From the IMG/VR virus record IMGVR_UViG_2737471834_000009: a DNA stretch of 33,255 nucleotides. One strand, 5' to 3'. Shown here piece after piece: positions 1-18,103 of the stretch; the first letter of the stretch is position 1, and the number at the start of each line of letters is the position of its first letter. Origin of the DNA: a virus. Its lineage: Duplodnaviria; Heunggongvirae; Uroviricota; Caudoviricetes. The notes beneath the pieces are model-generated. The model ran no database searches. It was not told the DNA's origin and saw nothing but the letters and a program-made list of their open reading frames with translations. Made by a program: the position numbers and the translations under genes.

Positions 1-1020
1 CTACTTACTGACCACAAGCGGCAAATCCAGTGTTGGTGTGATTTTGGTTTTACGATCGTAAATCAACACCTGATTTTCTGTTTTATGTCCACTGAAAATT
101 TGTTTGTCGCGGCTGCTGCCTTCGTAATCTGAAATCCCTTTGGCTTTTATGTCATGGAAGTTGCACCCAAACGGAGTGCCGGCTTTTTGCTCGGCTGCAC
201 GTTTAGCCTGATTCCACCAGTTGTTCAGCGTCTTAGCTATGACCTTCCCGCCTTTGGTTGTGTTGATCACATACTCGCATGTACTGGAAGATACATTTCT
301 GGCTAACTGGATCGCCGTGCGTAATCGCGGAGACCATTCTTTGATTTGCTTAGTGCCGGTCTTGTTTTGCTCAATGTAGATCCCCTTATCCATAATATCC
401 TGCCATTTCAGTTCGAGCACATCACCAAGCCTTGCCGCACAAAGATAGGATATCTCCATTGCAATGCGTAACTGTGGAGTTGCTTCCGCATATATCGCAG
501 CATACTGTTCATCGGTGATGTAAACAGTACGGGCCTTAAGCGTGAATTTTCTGACTCCTTTGCATGGATTATTTTTCACATATCCACGTTCATATCCCCA
601 TCCGTATACACGGCTCAGGCTTGCCAGTTCATGGTTTGCCTGGGTCTTGCTCTCAAGTCCTCGCTTATCCATGAAAATTCTTACCTGTTCTATTTTTACA
701 TTATCAGCAAGCACTTTTCCGAATACTGCCAGTAATGCCCTTTGATGTTGCCGATAATCTTTTTGAGTTCGTGGTGCCAATTCTGTAAATGCAGGGGAGT
801 CCATAAACATGTGCCATAATTTAGCGACAGTCATTATGTTGTGAAGTTTTGCTTTTTCCAGTTCATAATTTTGCCAGACTTTAGCCACGCTGGTTTCCCG
901 CACTTTTCCGAGCCCTATAGTTCTTGTGCTTCCTTCGGGTTTCCATACATAACTGTAACCATTCGATCTAACACGTGGCGGCAGTGCGTTATCTTTTTTG
1001 TTTTTTCTTGGTCTTCCCAT
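1..1020 (-). CDS. int: phage integrase, tyrosine recombinase family
   Basis: 339-aa ORF with basic N-terminal arm-binding-like region and C-terminal catalytic-like region ending ...HKTENQVLIYDRK; first gene of the prophage, followed by an overlapping small upstream gene. Confidence 0.85.
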   Translation of the reverse strand: MGRPRKNKKDNALPPRVRSNGYSYVWKPEGSTRTIGLGKVRETSVAKVWQNYELEKAKLHNIMTVAKLWHMFMDSPAFTELAPRTQKDYRQHQRALLAVFGKVLADNVKIEQVRIFMDKRGLESKTQANHELASLSRVYGWGYERGYVKNNPCKGVRKFTLKARTVYITDEQYAAIYAEATPQLRIAMEISYLCAARLGDVLELKWQDIMDKGIYIEQNKTGTKQIKEWSPRLRTAIQLARNVSSSTCEYVINTTKGGKVIAKTLNNWWNQAKRAAEQKAGTPFGCNFHDIKAKGISDYEGSSRDKQIFSGHKTENQVLIYDRKTKITPTLDLPLVVSK

Positions 1021-1240
1021 TGTTCAGCGCCTCAAAATCGGGTTCAGCAGAAACCAGTTCAGATACTTTCGACATCGCTTTCAGCCCGTGCGGAACATCC
1101 TGGCGAAGAACTATTGGTTCGTTTTTAGGTCCGACTACAAACGGGATGCCGTGCAGCCTTAGCTGGTGTTGCTGTCTTGTGTATCGCGTGTATCTTGTGA
1201 TCTCTTCAATCTCTGCTGGCGATAGAGTTAATTCGTACAT
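989..1240 (-). CDS. putative excisionase / small DNA-binding protein (assigned by position)
   Basis: Small ORF overlapping the integrase start by 32 nt; internal ATG start gives MYELTLSPAEIEEI...; no clear match to lambda Xis. Confidence 0.45.
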   Translation of the reverse strand: MYELTLSPAEIEEITRYTRYTRQQHQLRLHGIPFVVGPKNEPIVLRQDVPHGLKAMSKVSELVSAEPDFEALNNGKTKKKQKR

Positions 1241-1306
1241 GTGGTCACGTGCCTTACAGCATGACCGCCGCCAATATAATTCGGAGACGGCGATCATGGT
1301 TGAACA

Positions 1307-3748
1307 TTAAAAATCAACCGGATTCGGGATCAGTTTTTGCCAGATAGCTGAAACGTATTTTGCCTGGTAACGAGCGTCATCAAGTGCATTATGGCGCTCA
1401 CCTTCGAATGGAATAGCCGTTCTGGCATCGAAGTCTATGGCTTTCCCCAGCTCAACGATTGTGCGTACATCGCGATCGTTGTAGTAACGCCACGGGCAGG
1501 GGATCCCCTGCCGTTCGTATGAACGGCGCAAAATCGTGTTGTCGAAGTTGGCTCCATTTCCCCAGACCTGAACAAAAAATTCACCGGAGTTTTCGTCGAT
1601 AAATTCCCGCAATTGTAACAGTGCATCATCTAACGGGATTTCATCGGTCATAATGGCAGATTGCGCTTCGCGTGATTGCTTAAGCCACCATTTAATGGTG
1701 TCCCGATCAATGACTCCGCCAGCAGTTTCCAGATCGATAGTCTTACTAAATTCCGGTCCCATATCTCCGGTTTGCGGATCGAAAAATATTGCACCTATTG
1801 AGATGATCGGGGCATCAGGATTTTTTCCCATGGTTTCAAGGTCGATCATTAGATGGTCACACGTCCTGCTGGTGGATGTGATTTCGTGATGACCGTTCAC
1901 CTTAATTGAGTGATCTGCCGTCTCGCCAGTTTTATTATCGCTGGCGTGATGCTGATTGCCGCCAGGGTTCTCCTTGTGTGGATGTTCAGCGCCTTCCATT
2001 TCCTCCGGATCATTTTCCTGAACTTCAACCTGATTCTCTTCATCGAATGTTTCCTGGTATGTTGCGTCGCCCATCACCGCGCCACAATCAGGGCAGTTGC
2101 CGCCACCGCTCTGACCGCAGGCGGTGCAGACTTTTTCCGGTTCCTGTTGCGCTACTGGTTCGGATTGTTTCGTTTCTGGCTCGTTTTGTAACGCATTTGG
2201 GCTGTTTTGTTCCGCTTTTTGGTCGTTCCGTTCCGATTCATGCTGGTTCTGGTTCACAGAATCGCGAGTCTGGATCCCCTTGACCCATTTCGGATCATTA
2301 GGGTCGCTAATCCCCTCAACAAATTCACCACGCGATACAGCAAGTAACTTATCGGCGTCAGGCTGGCTGATATTGGCTGCCTGCATAATTTTGTTTACTT
2401 CGTCAGCGGTGACTTTTACTTGGTTAGCGGAACTCACCTGCGACTGAGCATCCAGCGACTGCGCGTTCTGGCCATGTTCAGTTGTATCCGGTTCCATTGT
2501 TTCAGTTGTTGCCTGTTCACCTGCCATTGCGTCAGATGGTTGTGGTTTTTCTTCTTCTGTTTCACGCTCAGTAACCACCTCGCGGTTAATTTCTTCCAGG
2601 ATATCTTTTTCCGGCGTATGCCGGGCAGCTGTGAGAGTTTCCTTGCTGGGGTTCTCGTGATCAGTTTCCGTCAAATAGGCGTTGATATACCCCTGAAGGC
2701 GTCCCGGGTAGTGATAAAATTCAGGGTGTGCGCTTCGGATAAGTGCAAAAATAGCGGCGCGGGAATAGTCCAGAATACCCGGGGTTGCACGAAGTGCTGC
2801 GGACCATTCTTTGAACGGACTTTCTTTGTTCAGGACTACTTCTTTTGCGCGACGATAAACGCTGCCCGGAATTTCATAAATATTAAAATCCATCGGAAGT
2901 GTGGCTGCTGCAATCTCCACATCCAGTGTGTCGAGGGTGTGTACTAAATTCGGATTGCGATCGGTTTTGTTCCCACCGCCAGCATTAGCACCGGAAGCCG
3001 TGCGGGTGATGCGTGAAACACGATTTCCTTTCATCCACTCTTTTGTCAGCAGGCCGCGATCGGTGTAGTCAGCGTCCAGGTATGCTTCGAAAAAAGCAGT
3101 CATTAATCCCAGACTGGAATTAACGGGATTAGGGAAAACTTTGTCAGTGTCGCGAACCAGTTTGTGGAGGTCGCGAAGTTCCAGTGGGTCGAGCAGGCTG
3201 GTTTTGTGCGAAATAGCCAGGGCAGTAACTGCCGGTAGCTCTTCAGCCCGAGCGATATGTAATGCCTGAAGTTCATCTCTTGAAACGTGTGTTACTGGTT
3301 TTTCGCTGCCGTGTTGAGCAAGCCAACGGATAGCCACCTCCTGACCGGAAACTGGCAGGAGCATGCTCTCCTCAATCTCCGTCATGTCTTCGCCGTTAAC
3401 ATTGGTATTTTCGGTGCTGGCTGGTTTGTTCTGCACAGAGGGAGATGGCGCGGTGAATACCATTGTGATGCCATCTTCACCGCCTTTTTCATAGCGGTTA
3501 CAGAATTCGGTATCAAACACGCCTTCTGGTGGAAGGTCATTCACAACAGGCAAATGGACGCGAACAGGTTTTTTAAAGTCCTCTTCGTCGTAACCAGCAT
3601 CATCCATTGCGACATTACCGCGGGAAACTGCAACAGATAATTTTTTTGCTGTAGTCCAGTAAAAACCGCCTTTAATACCGAGACGTTTTCTGACTTTGTC
3701 ATTTTTGGCTTCGTAATGGAGTGCAATGTCTTGTTTGTCAGTGCTCAT
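1307..3748 (-). CDS. large exonuclease-like protein with C-terminal DnaQ-like (DEDDh) 3'-5' exonuclease domain
   Basis: C-terminus has motifs DLETMG, WGNGANFD and HNALDDARY typical of DEDD exonucleases; central CxxC...CxxC (CTACGQSGGGNCPDCG); long acidic Q/E-rich linker; RBS GAGG before ATG at 3748. Confidence 0.7.
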   Translation of the reverse strand: MSTDKQDIALHYEAKNDKVRKRLGIKGGFYWTTAKKLSVAVSRGNVAMDDAGYDEEDFKKPVRVHLPVVNDLPPEGVFDTEFCNRYEKGGEDGITMVFTAPSPSVQNKPASTENTNVNGEDMTEIEESMLLPVSGQEVAIRWLAQHGSEKPVTHVSRDELQALHIARAEELPAVTALAISHKTSLLDPLELRDLHKLVRDTDKVFPNPVNSSLGLMTAFFEAYLDADYTDRGLLTKEWMKGNRVSRITRTASGANAGGGNKTDRNPNLVHTLDTLDVEIAAATLPMDFNIYEIPGSVYRRAKEVVLNKESPFKEWSAALRATPGILDYSRAAIFALIRSAHPEFYHYPGRLQGYINAYLTETDHENPSKETLTAARHTPEKDILEEINREVVTERETEEEKPQPSDAMAGEQATTETMEPDTTEHGQNAQSLDAQSQVSSANQVKVTADEVNKIMQAANISQPDADKLLAVSRGEFVEGISDPNDPKWVKGIQTRDSVNQNQHESERNDQKAEQNSPNALQNEPETKQSEPVAQQEPEKVCTACGQSGGGNCPDCGAVMGDATYQETFDEENQVEVQENDPEEMEGAEHPHKENPGGNQHHASDNKTGETADHSIKVNGHHEITSTSRTCDHLMIDLETMGKNPDAPIISIGAIFFDPQTGDMGPEFSKTIDLETAGGVIDRDTIKWWLKQSREAQSAIMTDEIPLDDALLQLREFIDENSGEFFVQVWGNGANFDNTILRRSYERQGIPCPWRYYNDRDVRTIVELGKAIDFDARTAIPFEGERHNALDDARYQAKYVSAIWQKLIPNPVDF

Positions 3749-4753: not shown

Positions 4754-4811
4754 AAAAAGGGCGGCAGAGCAGTCACGGAGTAAAACTGATACCGCCAAAC
4801 GTCACCAGAAA
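4754..4811 (-). ncRNA. dicF: DicF small RNA (ftsZ-targeting sRNA) with intrinsic terminator
   Basis: Minus-strand sequence TTTCTGGTGACGTTTGGCGGTATCAGTTTTACTCCGTGACTGCTCTGCCGCCC followed by a T-run; GGCGG...CCGCC terminator hairpin; located between ydfC and dicB as in the Qin prophage. Confidence 0.8.
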
Positions 4812-13358: not shown

Positions 13359-13639
13359 GAAGGAAACAAAACAGAAACAACAATTGCCGTTACCTGTTGT
13401 TACCATGGCAAGTAAACGTATCTCAGGCGAGCGCATTGCGCCGTTCTGACGCAGATAAATTAGCCTGGATAGAAGGTGCTGGCAATAAAAAATAGCGTTT
13501 TCTTATCGGTGTCGGTAAGATTGCTGCGGGTGCTTGAGGCTGTCTGCCTCAGGCATGCCACTGTAAGGCAGACAGAGAAAAGCCCCAGTTAACATTATGC
13601 GTCCGGCAAGACGCTTAACATTAATCTGAGGCTCAATCT

Positions 13640-13852
13640 ATGAACGGCAAATCTAGGTTAGCCTCTTACGCGCCGAAAGGCAAGGAGAAGCAGGCTATGA
13701 AGCAGCAAAAGGCGATGTTAGTCGCCCTGATCGTCATCTGTATTACCGTCATTGTGACGGCACTGGTAACGAGGAAAGACCTCTGCGAGGTACGAATCCG
13801 AACCGGCCAGACGGAGGTCACTGTCTTCACAGCTTACGAACCTGAGGAGTAA
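13640..13852 (+). CDS. Mok-like reading frame (in-frame N-terminal extension of Hok)
   Basis: 70-aa ORF containing the hok frame, as in chromosomal mok/hok loci. Confidence 0.55.
   Translation: MNGKSRLASYAPKGKEKQAMKQQKAMLVALIVICITVIVTALVTRKDLCEVRIRTGQTEVTVFTAYEPEE
13697..13852 (+). CDS. hok: Hok/Gef family type I toxin
   Basis: 51-aa product MKQQKAMLVALIVICITVIVTALVTRKDLCEVRIRTGQTEVTVFTAYEPEE is near-identical to remembered HokD/RelF; mRNA leader has the tac-like hairpin GCTTGAGGCTGTCTGCCTCAGG. Confidence 0.85.
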   Translation: MKQQKAMLVALIVICITVIVTALVTRKDLCEVRIRTGQTEVTVFTAYEPEE

Positions 13853-16023: not shown

Positions 16024-16389
16024 ATGACTGAACGCATAGAATTTGTTTTGCCTTACCCGCCGACGGTGAATACCTACTGGCGACGTCATGGCAATACGTA
16101 TTTCATCTCGGAGGCCGGAAAGCGTTATCGCCGTGATGTGGCGCTAATTGTTCGCCAGCAGCGGCTGAAATTAAACCTGTCCGGAAGGCTGGCGATAAAG
16201 ATTATTGCAGAGCCACCGGATAAGCGCCGTCGTGACCTGGACAATATCCTGAAAGCACCACTGGATGCGCTGACGCATGCCGGACTTATCATAGACGACG
16301 AGCAGTTTGATGAAATCAATATTGTGCGCGGTCAGCTCGTTCCTGGTGGGCGGCTGGGGATAAAAATCACAGAACTGGAGTGCGCATGA
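16024..16389 (+). CDS. rusA: Holliday junction resolvase RusA
   Basis: 121-aa product with RusA hallmarks (LPYPPTVNTYWRRHG...DKRRRDLDNILKAPLDALTHAGLIIDDEQ); ATGA overlap with upstream stop. Confidence 0.9.
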   Translation: MTERIEFVLPYPPTVNTYWRRHGNTYFISEAGKRYRRDVALIVRQQRLKLNLSGRLAIKIIAEPPDKRRRDLDNILKAPLDALTHAGLIIDDEQFDEINIVRGQLVPGGRLGIKITELECA

Positions 16390-17075
16390 ATAACCAGTAT
16401 TTACAGTTTGTGCGTGAGCAGCTCATTATCGCCACCGCTGATTTGAGTGGGGCAACAAAAGGTCAGCTTGAAGCCTGGCAGGAGAATGCCATGTTCGATA
16501 CAGGGCGTTACAGGCGTAAAAAAATCCGGTACCGAGATGAAGTGACCGGAAAAATGATTACGCGGGATAATCCACCAATCCCGGGAAAACAATCACTGGT
16601 GAAAGGCTCATCAATTGCCCTGGTCAGCCCGGTTGAGTTTTCGACATCATCGTGGCGGCGGGCTGTTTTGTCTCTTGAAGAACATCATAAAGCCTGGTTG
16701 TTGTGGAGTTACAGCGGGAGTATTTGTTGGGAATATCAGATCGCGATAACACAGTGGGCGTGGAATGAATTTAATACTCAATCAGGTACCAGAAAAATTG
16801 CAGGGAAAACGCAGGAACGCCTGAAAAAATTAATCTGGCTGGCGGCGCAGGCAGTAAAAGCAGAACTTTTTGGTGGGGAAGGTTATGAATACCAGGAGCT
16901 GGCATTACTGGCGGGAGTGACAACTAAAAACTGGTCCAAAACATTTACTCGTCACTGGGTTGCAATGAAACACATTTTTCAACGACTGGATAGTGAGGCT
17001 TTATTGTTTGTAATGAGAACACGTTCAAAACAAAAGGCGGCATTTTCAAAGCAAAGTGTTGCAAAAGTAGATTGA
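16386..17075 (+). CDS. late gene antiterminator Q-like protein
   Basis: About 230 aa, immediately upstream of a promoter and short terminated transcript and then the lysis genes; start overlaps rusA stop. Confidence 0.7.
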   Translation: MNNQYLQFVREQLIIATADLSGATKGQLEAWQENAMFDTGRYRRKKIRYRDEVTGKMITRDNPPIPGKQSLVKGSSIALVSPVEFSTSSWRRAVLSLEEHHKAWLLWSYSGSICWEYQIAITQWAWNEFNTQSGTRKIAGKTQERLKKLIWLAAQAVKAELFGGEGYEYQELALLAGVTTKNWSKTFTRHWVAMKHIFQRLDSEALLFVMRTRSKQKAAFSKQSVAKVD

Positions 17076-17087
17076 AAGGCATATATT
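17059..17087 (+). promoter_or_regulatory. putative late promoter pR'-like
   Basis: -35 TTGCAA (17059-17064), 17-bp spacer, -10 TATATT (17082-17087), overlapping the 3' end of Q. Confidence 0.5.
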
Positions 17088-17141
17088 TCATGCAAATCTG
17101 ATATTTTGCCGATTTTGTACGTGATGGCAAAAGCAAACAAA

Positions 17142-17165
17142 ACCCGCCCACAAGCGGGTTTTTTT
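17142..17165 (+). terminator. intrinsic terminator tR'-like
   Basis: CCCGC-CCACAA-GCGGG followed by T7, about 55 nt downstream of the predicted pR' start site. Confidence 0.7.
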
Positions 17166-17247: not shown

Positions 17248-17276
17248 TTGCAACATTGATTTCGTAACGTTATTAT
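17248..17276 (+). promoter_or_regulatory. putative sigma70 promoter for the tRNA cluster
   Basis: -35 TTGCAA, 17-bp spacer, -10 TATTAT, ending 10 nt before the first tRNA. Confidence 0.5.
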
Positions 17277-17285
17277 CCTGCGCCC

Positions 17286-17361
17286 GGCCCTTTAGCTCAG
17301 TGGTGAGAGCGAGCGACTCATAATCGCCAGGTCGCTGGTTCAAATCCAGCAAGGGCCACCA
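17286..17361 (+). tRNA. tRNA, anticodon CAU (ileX/ileZ-like tRNA-Ile2; tRNA-Met not excluded)
   Basis: Manual cloverleaf: acceptor GGCCCTT/AAGGGCC, anticodon loop CTCATAA, T-loop TTCAAAT, CCA encoded; close to remembered ileX. Confidence 0.8.
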
Positions 17362-17362
17362 A

Positions 17363-17439
17363 CCGCCACTAGCTCATCAGGAAAGAGCGTCAACCCTTTA
17401 AGTTGAGTGTGCGAGGTTCGAGTCCCCGGTGGCGGTCCA
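17363..17439 (+). tRNA. atypical tRNA, anticodon loop CCTTTAA (anticodon UUU, Lys-like, with C at position 33)
   Basis: Manual cloverleaf: acceptor CCGCCAC/GTGGCGG (C1-G72), D-loop with GG, T-loop TTCGAGT, CCA encoded; isotype uncertain. Confidence 0.55.
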
Positions 17440-17441
17440 GT

Positions 17442-17517
<76 letters not shown>

Positions 17518-17520
17518 TAT

Positions 17521-17595
<75 letters not shown>

Positions 17596-17601
17596 GTTAG
17601 A

Positions 17602-17647
17602 GTCTTTCAGTCTGCGATGATGGGAAATCCCGGAGTGACTGAAAGAC
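17602..17647. repeat. perfect 11-bp inverted repeat (GTCTTTCAGTC / GACTGAAAGAC) with 24-nt loop
   Basis: Directly after the last tRNA. Confidence 0.7.
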
Positions 17648-17654
17648 GTTTAAG

Positions 17655-17727
17655 TTATGAATGATCGCCTTTTTTTGCAAAATTGCTGTGCAGAAATACT
17701 AACCTTCGGGCAGGCGATCATTCATAA
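17655..17727. repeat. perfect 15-bp inverted repeat (TTATGAATGATCGCC / GGCGATCATTCATAA) with 43-nt spacer
   Basis: Read directly from sequence; no ORF of appreciable size inside. Confidence 0.7.
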
Positions 17728-17801
17728 GCACTCTGCTTTTATTCCGATTAACTGTGGGTGGTTTGTTGGATAGAGTGCTTTCCTTTCTGTATATATCGTT
17801 T

Positions 17802-17826
17802 CGCCCGCTTTTGCGGGTTTTTCTTT
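17802..17826 (+). terminator. intrinsic terminator-like hairpin upstream of the lysis cassette
   Basis: CGCCCGC-TTTT-GCGGG followed by a T-run. Confidence 0.55.
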
Positions 17827-17887
17827 TCAAATCCCTTTCATTTCTCAGTGTAAAACTACGCCATCCGTTATTTGCGGAGGTGAGGCT

Positions 17888-18103
17888 ATGAAATCCATGG
17901 ACAAAATTTCAACGGGCATTGCCTATGGCACCTCCGCAGGCAGTGCTGGCTACTGGTTTTTACAGTGGCTTGATCAGGTCAGTCCGTCACAGTGGGCTGC
18001 GATTGGTGTGCTGGGGAGTCTGGTTCTGGGCTTCCTGACTTATCTGACAAATCTGTACTTCAAAATCAGAGAAGACAAGCGTAAGGCTGCACGGGGAGAG
18101 TAA
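17888..18103 (+). CDS. class II holin (phage 21 S-type pinholin) with dual-start motif
   Basis: 71-aa product [28 protein letters not shown]...; two TM segments; Met1/Met4 dual start. Confidence 0.9.

Follow-up and report, generated by a model that had tools for sequence, protein, structure and literature searches.

The species 1 and species 2 RNAs of bacteriophage T4 (rnaC and rnaD, of 139 and 119 nucleotides (nt), respectively) are small, structured and stable molecules co-transcribed with the transfer RNAs (tRNAs) of the phage; to our knowledge, no function of the T4 tRNA-cluster RNAs has ever been established. The glyW-cysT-leuZ transcript yields a tRNA-trailer RNA, 3'ETS-leuZ, which lies between the last tRNA and the terminator, is freed by tRNA processing and can act in trans. 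A further group of small RNAs (sRNAs) comes from the slot between the antiterminator gene Q and the lysis genes, which is occupied by the Pas sRNAs of enteropathogenic Escherichia coli (EPEC) (PMC8550237; 10.64898/2026.05.13.724894). Hfq dependence has been demonstrated for Pas sRNAs (PMC8550237), PasD, which is related to STnc100, neighbours Q (10.64898/2026.05.13.724894), and PasA/PasC and AsxR/AgvB-type sRNAs are found at the pR' moron site, either beside the holin-lysozyme operon or downstream of Q and pR' (PMC4104026; 10.64898/2026.05.13.724894). The element described here occupies this same slot, directly after a tRNA array, in a 33,255-nt stretch of Caudoviricetes DNA (IMG/VR record IMGVR_UViG_2737471834_000009; the whole stretch is referred to as the window) that represents a lambdoid prophage. 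It lies at positions 17596–17830, between a tRNA-Gly gene and a holin gene, and we conclude with high confidence that this region is a functional structured RNA of the plus strand. The RNA family is new and unannotated, and it belongs to a kind already known, the non-coding RNAs that phages and prophages encode in the Q-to-lysis moron slot and in tRNA clusters.

Structure and conservation of the element

Three hairpin domains, designated SL1, P1 and P2, follow one another on the plus strand. SL1 (17597–17653) is built on an 11-base pair (bp) perfect inverted repeat with a 24-nt loop (IR1, 17602–17612/17637–17647), which an initial annotation of the region had placed directly after the last tRNA and which indeed starts 7 nt after the end of tRNA-Gly at 17595; the domain also contains a conserved internal loop (UGCGAUGA/GGAGU) and an apical GGG-NNNN-CCC stem with a variable loop. 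P1 (17655–17727) is closed by a second repeat (IR2), likewise perfect and long as first described, although its arms comprise 16 bp separated by 41 nt (17655–17670/17712–17727) rather than 15 bp and 43 nt. It encloses the inner helix P1a (17672–17696), whose 9-nt apical loop AAAUUGCUG (17680–17688) is nearly invariant, and a small CC-NNNN-GG hairpin. P2 (17726–17780) is formed by a third perfect repeat of 9 bp (17726–17734/17772–17780) that the initial annotation did not contain, and combines an outer stem of 8–9 bp (GCACUCUG/UAGAGUGC) with inner helices and a nearly invariant strand, GGGUGGUUUGUUGG (17756–17769). The terminator hairpin reported ahead of the holin gene is present on the plus strand as an intrinsic terminator (17803–17826), in which GCCCGC UUUU GCGGG (17803–17818) is followed by a T-run, UUUUUCUUUU, that reaches 17826 and ends 62 nt 5' of the holin start codon.

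The palindromes are far beyond chance. Of all perfect inverted repeats in the whole window whose loop is at most 60 nt, IR2 is the longest, and two of the four perfect repeats of at least 11 bp in the window fall inside the 235-nt region 17596–17830, which bears out the earlier impression of unusual length. The plus strand folds at −83.6 kcal/mol (z = −5.96; 0 of 200 shuffles equally stable), better by 18 kcal/mol than the minus strand (−65.8 kcal/mol). Two details of the fold were considered and set aside: the CC-NNNN-GG mini-hairpin at the P1 junction has 2–3 bp only, too weak a basis for claiming a conserved element, and a kink-turn or C/D-box reading of the SL1 internal loop, suggested by its tandem G-A, was considered by eye and is not claimed. 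MAFFT aligned SL1 to tRNA-Gly, which may hint that SL1 is a remnant of a tRNA anticodon and T arm.

All three stems are conserved as RNA structure. A plain MAFFT alignment of 44 distinct cores leads RNAalifold to predict 39 pairs, 10 of them with compensatory changes. In an alignment of 68 distinct sequences to a covariance model, R1, standard pairs occupy 98.4% of cells, a figure obtained with sequences fitted to the model itself, and paired cells fall to 41–49% when partners are slid by 1–3 columns. Both sides have changed at 21 of the 39 pairs in these sequences, including 7 of 14 pairs in the P1 outer stem, 6 of 8 in P1a and 5 of 8 in the P2 outer stem, and on each of five measures the observed value exceeds that of all 500 column shuffles. 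Among 26 distinct copies of SL1, stem pairs 2 and 3 swap between C-G and U-A, and at pair 8 A-U (10 distinct copies) alternates with G-U (15). The comparative check proposed by the initial annotation, alignment across related prophages with analysis of covariation, has thus been run, and it found the palindromes conserved with compensatory changes in all stems.

G-U pairs are frequent on the plus strand and their mirror image, A-C (a G-U pair when read on the opposite strand), is rare, indicating that the folded molecule is the plus strand, the same strand as that of the tRNAs and late genes. Conservation is higher in the loops than in the stems, with UUUUUGCAAAAUUGCUGUG and GGGUGGUUUGUUGG hardly varying between any of the types. 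The type found in phage HK639 shares ~76% identity with that of the window over SL1-P1-P2, and the two are unalignable past the third hairpin, where HK639 has a terminator in the same position with a different sequence. Purifying selection acts on the core while its flanks, terminator sequence included, are replaced, which speaks against the earlier suggestion of a scar left by cargo exchange. The small structured RNA that the initial annotation offered as another option is, by contrast, favoured by stems that covary in ~63 distinct homologues, by the confinement of G-U pairs to one strand and the conservation of the loops, and by the predicted promoter and the terminator that bracket the unit.

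The element is non-coding. The region is not free of open reading frames (ORFs), as had been stated: a 38-codon ATG ORF (17657–17773, plus strand) lies inside P1 and P2, and other ORFs of at least 30 amino acids (aa) overlap the region on both strands. The 38-codon ORF is judged not to be a gene because of frameshifts and the lack of a start context. It has no Shine-Dalgarno sequence, its ATG sits within the 16-bp stem, and neither its frame nor its start codon is conserved among homologues. In window-type copies that are 98–99% identical, T-run indels of 1 or 2 nt trim it to 13–23 codons or fuse it to other frames. The HK639 type has TTG at the aligned start and no ATG, and its stop positions vary, giving lengths of 6, 7, 11, 12, 14, 18, 27, 31, 38 or 43–55 codons, or no stop in the stretch examined. 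Gene callers report the 38-aa product on only 7 contigs in the protein collection, all of them genome assemblies, and the Prokaryotic Genome Annotation Pipeline (PGAP) calls it in none of the 40 E. coli records listed.

An RNA-only unit between Q and the lysis genes

The 292-nt stretch from tRNA-Gly to the holin gene was found in 540 of 5426 complete E. coli genomes, with identities of mostly 95–100% and always on the chromosome; among the 40 E. coli records listed, no annotation lies beneath the match. The window type is present in four phage records and a 76% identical version in phage HK639. Pattern scans of viral contigs, metagenomes and representative genomes yielded ~170 further copies, those in the genome scan being distributed over six genera. 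Genomes with copies are those of Shigella flexneri, Citrobacter sedlakii, Enterobacter hormaechei, Yokenella regensburgei and Phytobacter ursingii, and a Salmonella plasmid carries a whole copy and Salmonella phage Fels-1 a partial one.

Element and tRNAs together have the appearance of a moron that makes RNA products only and is inserted between Q and the lysis genes. It has its own terminator, it is flanked by unrelated modules, and it is preceded by a predicted promoter whose position and sequence are kept in relatives. This sigma-70-type box (TTGCAA, 17-nt spacer, TATTAT; 17248–17276, plus strand), which scores 9 of 12 matches in a consensus scan, ends 9 nt 5' of the first tRNA; a TTGCRT-17-nt spacer-TATCAT/TATTAT box stands 8–9 nt 5' of the first tRNA in 11 of 15 related loci and is retained although the DNA further upstream is unrelated. 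Judged by its sequence, the box at 17248–17276 probably acts as the promoter of the tRNA/RNA unit. Promoter, tRNAs, structured RNA and terminator add up to classical moron anatomy, with RNA products only. The initial annotation had recognised the position, between Q and the holin gene S, at which Stx-type phages hold toxin cargo, and had reported no ORFs there; the region is indeed the moron slot, but it is not empty, its cargo being the tRNA array and the structured RNA.

The array consists of four tRNA genes on the plus strand (17286–17595), with the anticodons CAU (Ile according to RefSeq), UUU (Lys-like), UGU (Thr) and UCC (Gly), as identified by ARAGORN, the Rfam tRNA model and the RefSeq annotation of an identical prophage. 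In HK639 and in loci L212, L168 and L071 the tRNAs have decayed to fragments yet the core is intact, and in Fels-1 (L280), where the tRNAs have also decayed, the structured RNA (a partial copy) is still intact; conservation of the core is therefore independent of the tRNAs. HK639 retains only the 3' half of tRNA-Gly (L001, 2440–2480), similarly degraded arrays lie upstream in L212, L168, L071 and L280, and the promoter box is intact. The second tRNA of the window (17363–17439; Rfam tRNA score 44 bits), although called Lys-UUU, has the anticodon loop CCUUUAA, with C in place of the universal U33. Its acceptor, D and T arms are the same in the relatives compared (L008, L115, L020, L046, L077, L107, L177 and L029), and its anticodon loop is hypervariable, often cut to 4–5 nt (UAAAU, UUUAU, AUAG, UUGG, CAGG), and in one relative a canonical Arg-UCU loop is found. 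This second gene either is a tRNA in decay or encodes a tRNA-like decoy.

Downstream of the array, a helix starts 2–7 nt past the tRNA CCA in loci with and without SL1; where SL1 is missing, as in several loci, P1 starts 2–3 nt after the CCA of tRNA-Gly. At the other end, a terminator satisfying strict criteria lies 12–41 nt 3' of P2 in 44 of 63 distinct homologues, most of the remainder having the same terminator weakened by a G-to-T slip, and at least five unrelated terminator sequences are in use among the homologues. Loci L257, L263, L168, L183 and L005 have, in place of the terminator, another conserved non-coding stretch (...GGCATGCTAGGTAAGGGAAATTAAAATGAGAAAAAAGACGAGGGACTTTACAGGCGACATCACATCCCTCGACAAAAGATTCCC...) in the 150 nt after the core. 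In three others (L047, 2729–2917; L219, 2734–2922; L177, 2743–2943) a conserved ORF of 62–66 aa (MQEGFYWIKHVDSVQVAYF...), with a good ribosome-binding site and no Pfam match, lies ~90 nt past the core.

The hairpins are separable modules. Morons with small-protein genes are inserted between SL1 and P1 in L096, L077 and Fels-1, and P1 occurs alone, followed by a terminator or other sequence, in L121 and Fels-1. P2 occurs alone in ~20 further phage contigs, recognisable by the signature UAAY-NN-GGGGUGGUUUGUUGG within an outer stem that differs by type; the same inner motif is closed by at least eight different outer-stem sequences, which provides independent covariation support for P2. These stand-alone copies lie mostly upstream of lysis genes, at sites that include the position right after pR'-tR', 12–25 nt 5' of an ORF ribosome-binding site, before the holin gene with their own terminator, and after the lysis cassette. 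One subtype does not belong to the late region: it precedes a small ORF in what appears to be an early operon.

The genes around the element vary. Q belongs to families PF06323, PF03589 or PF06530/DUF1133, and downstream are holins of PF04971 or PF16931 and endolysins of PF00959, GH19 or GH108, with the lysis genes on the same strand as the element in every locus where they were recognised. Loci L306, L307 and L310, from some E. coli assemblies, have three reverse-strand genes (850–2364, minus strand) without Pfam matches between a PF06530-type Q gene and the tRNA-RNA unit, a further sign that the Q-to-lysis interval is an insertion hot spot.

In the window itself the late region runs through DUF968, RusA and Q (16380–17075), a pR'-like promoter (17059–17087) that overlaps the 3' end of Q, and a tR'-like terminator (17139–17165), and continues after the unit with a class II holin gene (17888–18103), a DUF1327 gene, lysozyme and Rz. 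The ~70-nt RNA between the pR'-like promoter and the tR'-like terminator gives sub-threshold Rfam matches (22–25 bits) to the Salmonella prophage sRNAs IsrK and IsrJ. Elsewhere, matches at Rfam gathering level to sok, the hok/sok antitoxin RNA (13528–13702, plus strand, 111.7 bits), and to DicF (4759–4810, minus strand, 76.7 bits) indicate that the prophage carries at least two known regulatory RNAs besides its tRNAs.

Possible modes of action

The explanation we place first, at roughly even chances, is that this conserved plus-strand non-coding RNA, with its three separable hairpins and own terminator, exists as a discrete, stable molecule of ~230 nt that acts in trans. Polymerase from the tRNA promoter, plausibly also in lysogens, would transcribe through the unit, which would in lytic growth also be traversed by Q-modified polymerase from pR'. 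Processing of tRNA 3' ends would cut just past the CCA of tRNA-Gly and free a ~230-nt RNA with its 5' end closed at once by a strong helix and its 3' end formed by the terminator hairpin; with both ends protected in this way, the released RNA should be stable. The nearly invariant loops AAAUUGCUG and GGGUGGUUUGUUGG may then be the working surfaces for an RNA or protein partner, and the terminator would shield the holin gene from the constitutive tRNA promoter.

Several observations weigh against a trans-acting RNA. Antisense runs to the conserved loops within the window are G-U-rich 12–16-mers at chance level, and no target is proposed. In a few loci the full core reads into an ORF or another element without a terminator. 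Single hairpins also occur inside mRNAs without a terminator, as with P2 after pR'-tR' or 12–25 nt before a ribosome-binding site and P1 after an ORF stop codon, and such cases fit a cis-acting role at least as well. As to the structural evidence, much of the covariation signal stems from the split between the two main clades (window type and HK639 type), which implies fewer independent events than the cell counts suggest, although several pairs show three pair types despite this split.

The main competing explanation, possible but less probable than not in our estimate, takes up the processing sites named among the options of the initial annotation: the hairpins would act in cis on the late polycistronic transcript, as modules for its processing or stability, either by marking where RNase III or RNase E cuts or by protecting the 5' end newly exposed by tRNA excision, such that the downstream lysis and structural mRNA survives and no free functional RNA arises. 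The separability of the modules and their placement at gene-module borders in mRNAs (P2 alone after tR', before ORF ribosome-binding sites or after the lysis cassette; P1 alone after an ORF in Fels-1) fit this explanation, as does the strong helix that always begins 2–7 nt past the tRNA 3' end. The long, near-perfect helices of 11, 16+8 and 9+6+4 bp are in the size range that RNase III accepts, and the occurrence of the element with any type of Q or lysis gene is what would be expected of a generic signal in RNA metabolism. Generic nuclease or stabiliser hairpins, however, need no invariant loops, yet here the loops surpass the stems in conservation. Moreover, most full copies have a terminator 12–41 nt downstream, so that for polymerase without Q modification the hairpins end a transcript rather than head one, and in HK639 the holin gene follows the element only after several hundred nt and further terminators.

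A more specific proposal, which we regard as speculative and rather unlikely, is that SL1-P1-P2, and especially free P2 with its UAAC...GGGGUGGUUUGUUGG face, represents a new class of phage RNA effector with a specific protein or RNA of the host or phage as its binding partner (it might, for instance, be a decoy that counters RNA-targeting defence), or else a lysis-timing factor. The element travels with a tRNA array in which the anticodon loop of the second tRNA is hypervariable. If this proposal holds, the lambdoid Q-to-lysis interval would be a dedicated RNA arsenal and not just a slot for protein cargo.

A cis-regulatory RNA, that is, an attenuator, a riboswitch-like sensor or a put-like antiterminator controlling read-through into the lysis genes, appears improbable. 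Its appeal lies in the order of a structured conserved domain, a terminator and lysis genes, and in the fact that HK639 carries both the element and, elsewhere, a put-like antiterminator RNA. Inspection of the alignments reveals no conserved alternative pairing between P2 and the terminator, whose sequences differ and whose 12–41-nt spacer is variable and unconserved, and P2 is also found without a terminator behind it. The covariance model shows no similarity to the putL-like RNA of HK639, and with Q present late antitermination is already supplied.

Slightly less probable still is a feature acting at the DNA level, such as a protein-binding palindrome, a single-strand DNA hairpin, a recombination boundary or a scar of module exchange. 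The repeats are perfect in the window, and the morons inserted between modules in relatives mark the module borders as recombination points. Duplex DNA sites, however, require neither compensatory changes nor G-T (G-U) pairs confined to one strand, and the element keeps a constant orientation with the lysis genes wherever these are recognised and lies inside a promoter-to-terminator unit. Least credible of all is a gene for a 38-aa protein at 17657–17773, for which the existence of the ATG ORF, its annotation as a hypothetical protein in two phage records and the retention of the frame in many copies speak, and against which stand the lack of start signals, the T-run indels, the HK639 type and the PGAP results given above.

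Relation to described RNAs

No described family covers the element. A search of Rfam 15 with positions 17596–17800 gave no family even at E ≤ 10, the only match nearby being a chance terminator match to anti-hemB (13 bits against a gathering threshold of 49.5). A scan of the whole window and HK639 at gathering thresholds returned only tRNA, sok, DicF and STnc100, all outside the element, and permissive thresholds gave no match to the element in HK639 or Fels-1 and no family covering the stand-alone P2 loci. The conserved motifs, searched as text in about 8 million papers, retrieved one unrelated primer match only. The unit is unannotated in about 1 in 10 complete E. coli genomes and in prophages of at least six other enterobacterial genera; with a covariance model such as R1, annotation pipelines could label it and drop the spurious 38-aa ORF. 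The occurrence of P2 across phages with different antiterminators and lysis cassettes points to a general and as yet undescribed signal that late phage transcripts carry at the RNA level. Should lysogens produce the RNA, the unit would be a lysogenic-conversion factor consisting of RNA only and would add to the few sRNAs known from the Q-to-S slot (STnc100/PasD, PasA/C and AsxR/AgvB).

Among the RNAs of that slot, STnc100 (RF02076) resembles the element in being a co-oriented small-RNA unit with its own terminator in the Q-to-holin interval. STnc100 units lie just after the terminator of the element in HK639 (L001, 2754–2959) and at three places in Fels-1 (L280, 1273–1486, 1687–1809 and 2810–3028), each equipped with a terminator of its own; in HK639, four terminators are annotated in the interval from Q to the holin gene. 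Identity with STnc100/PasD was rejected, as the window contains no RF02076 match (threshold 47 bits) and the STnc100 copies of HK639 and Fels-1 are separate, adjacent units. Identity with the Pas sRNAs (PasA, PasC, PasD) was likewise rejected: R1, with filters off, gave no match above 10 bits across the Q-to-lysis region of prophage PP2 of E2348/69, which holds PasD2 and PasA, and the published seed contexts are unrelated. PasA/PasC and AsxR/AgvB are convergent with the late operon, ~80 nt long and equipped with a single seed, whereas the element is co-oriented with it, ~230 nt long and composed of three hairpin domains; no sequence match was found between the element and these PasA/PasC or AsxR/AgvB-type sRNAs.

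The put RNAs of HK022 and the putL-like RNA of HK639 are two-hairpin, cis-acting phage RNAs upstream of terminators, but they lie just downstream of pL and pR, whereas the element belongs to the late region, and a put antiterminator was discarded as a candidate because R1 does not match the annotated putL-like RNA of HK639. A phi80 M3-type RNA was discarded in the same way, R1 giving no match at the M3-like RNA of HK639 (after cII, 37910–37969). The trailer RNA 3'ETS-leuZ shares the position between last tRNA and terminator; it is, however, short and has little structure besides the terminator, in contrast to the 125 nt of conserved helices in the element.

The best analogy, a positional one only, is with rnaC and rnaD of T4, which like the element stand directly after the last tRNA and on the same strand, rnaD starting 2 nt after tRNA-Arg and SL1 2–7 nt after tRNA-Gly. 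R1 with filters off gave no match over rnaC or rnaD, and T4 differs in being virulent and in having its tRNA cluster outside the Q-to-lysis moron slot. With these differences in mind, the element offers a tractable temperate-phage counterpart to the T4 tRNA-cluster RNAs.

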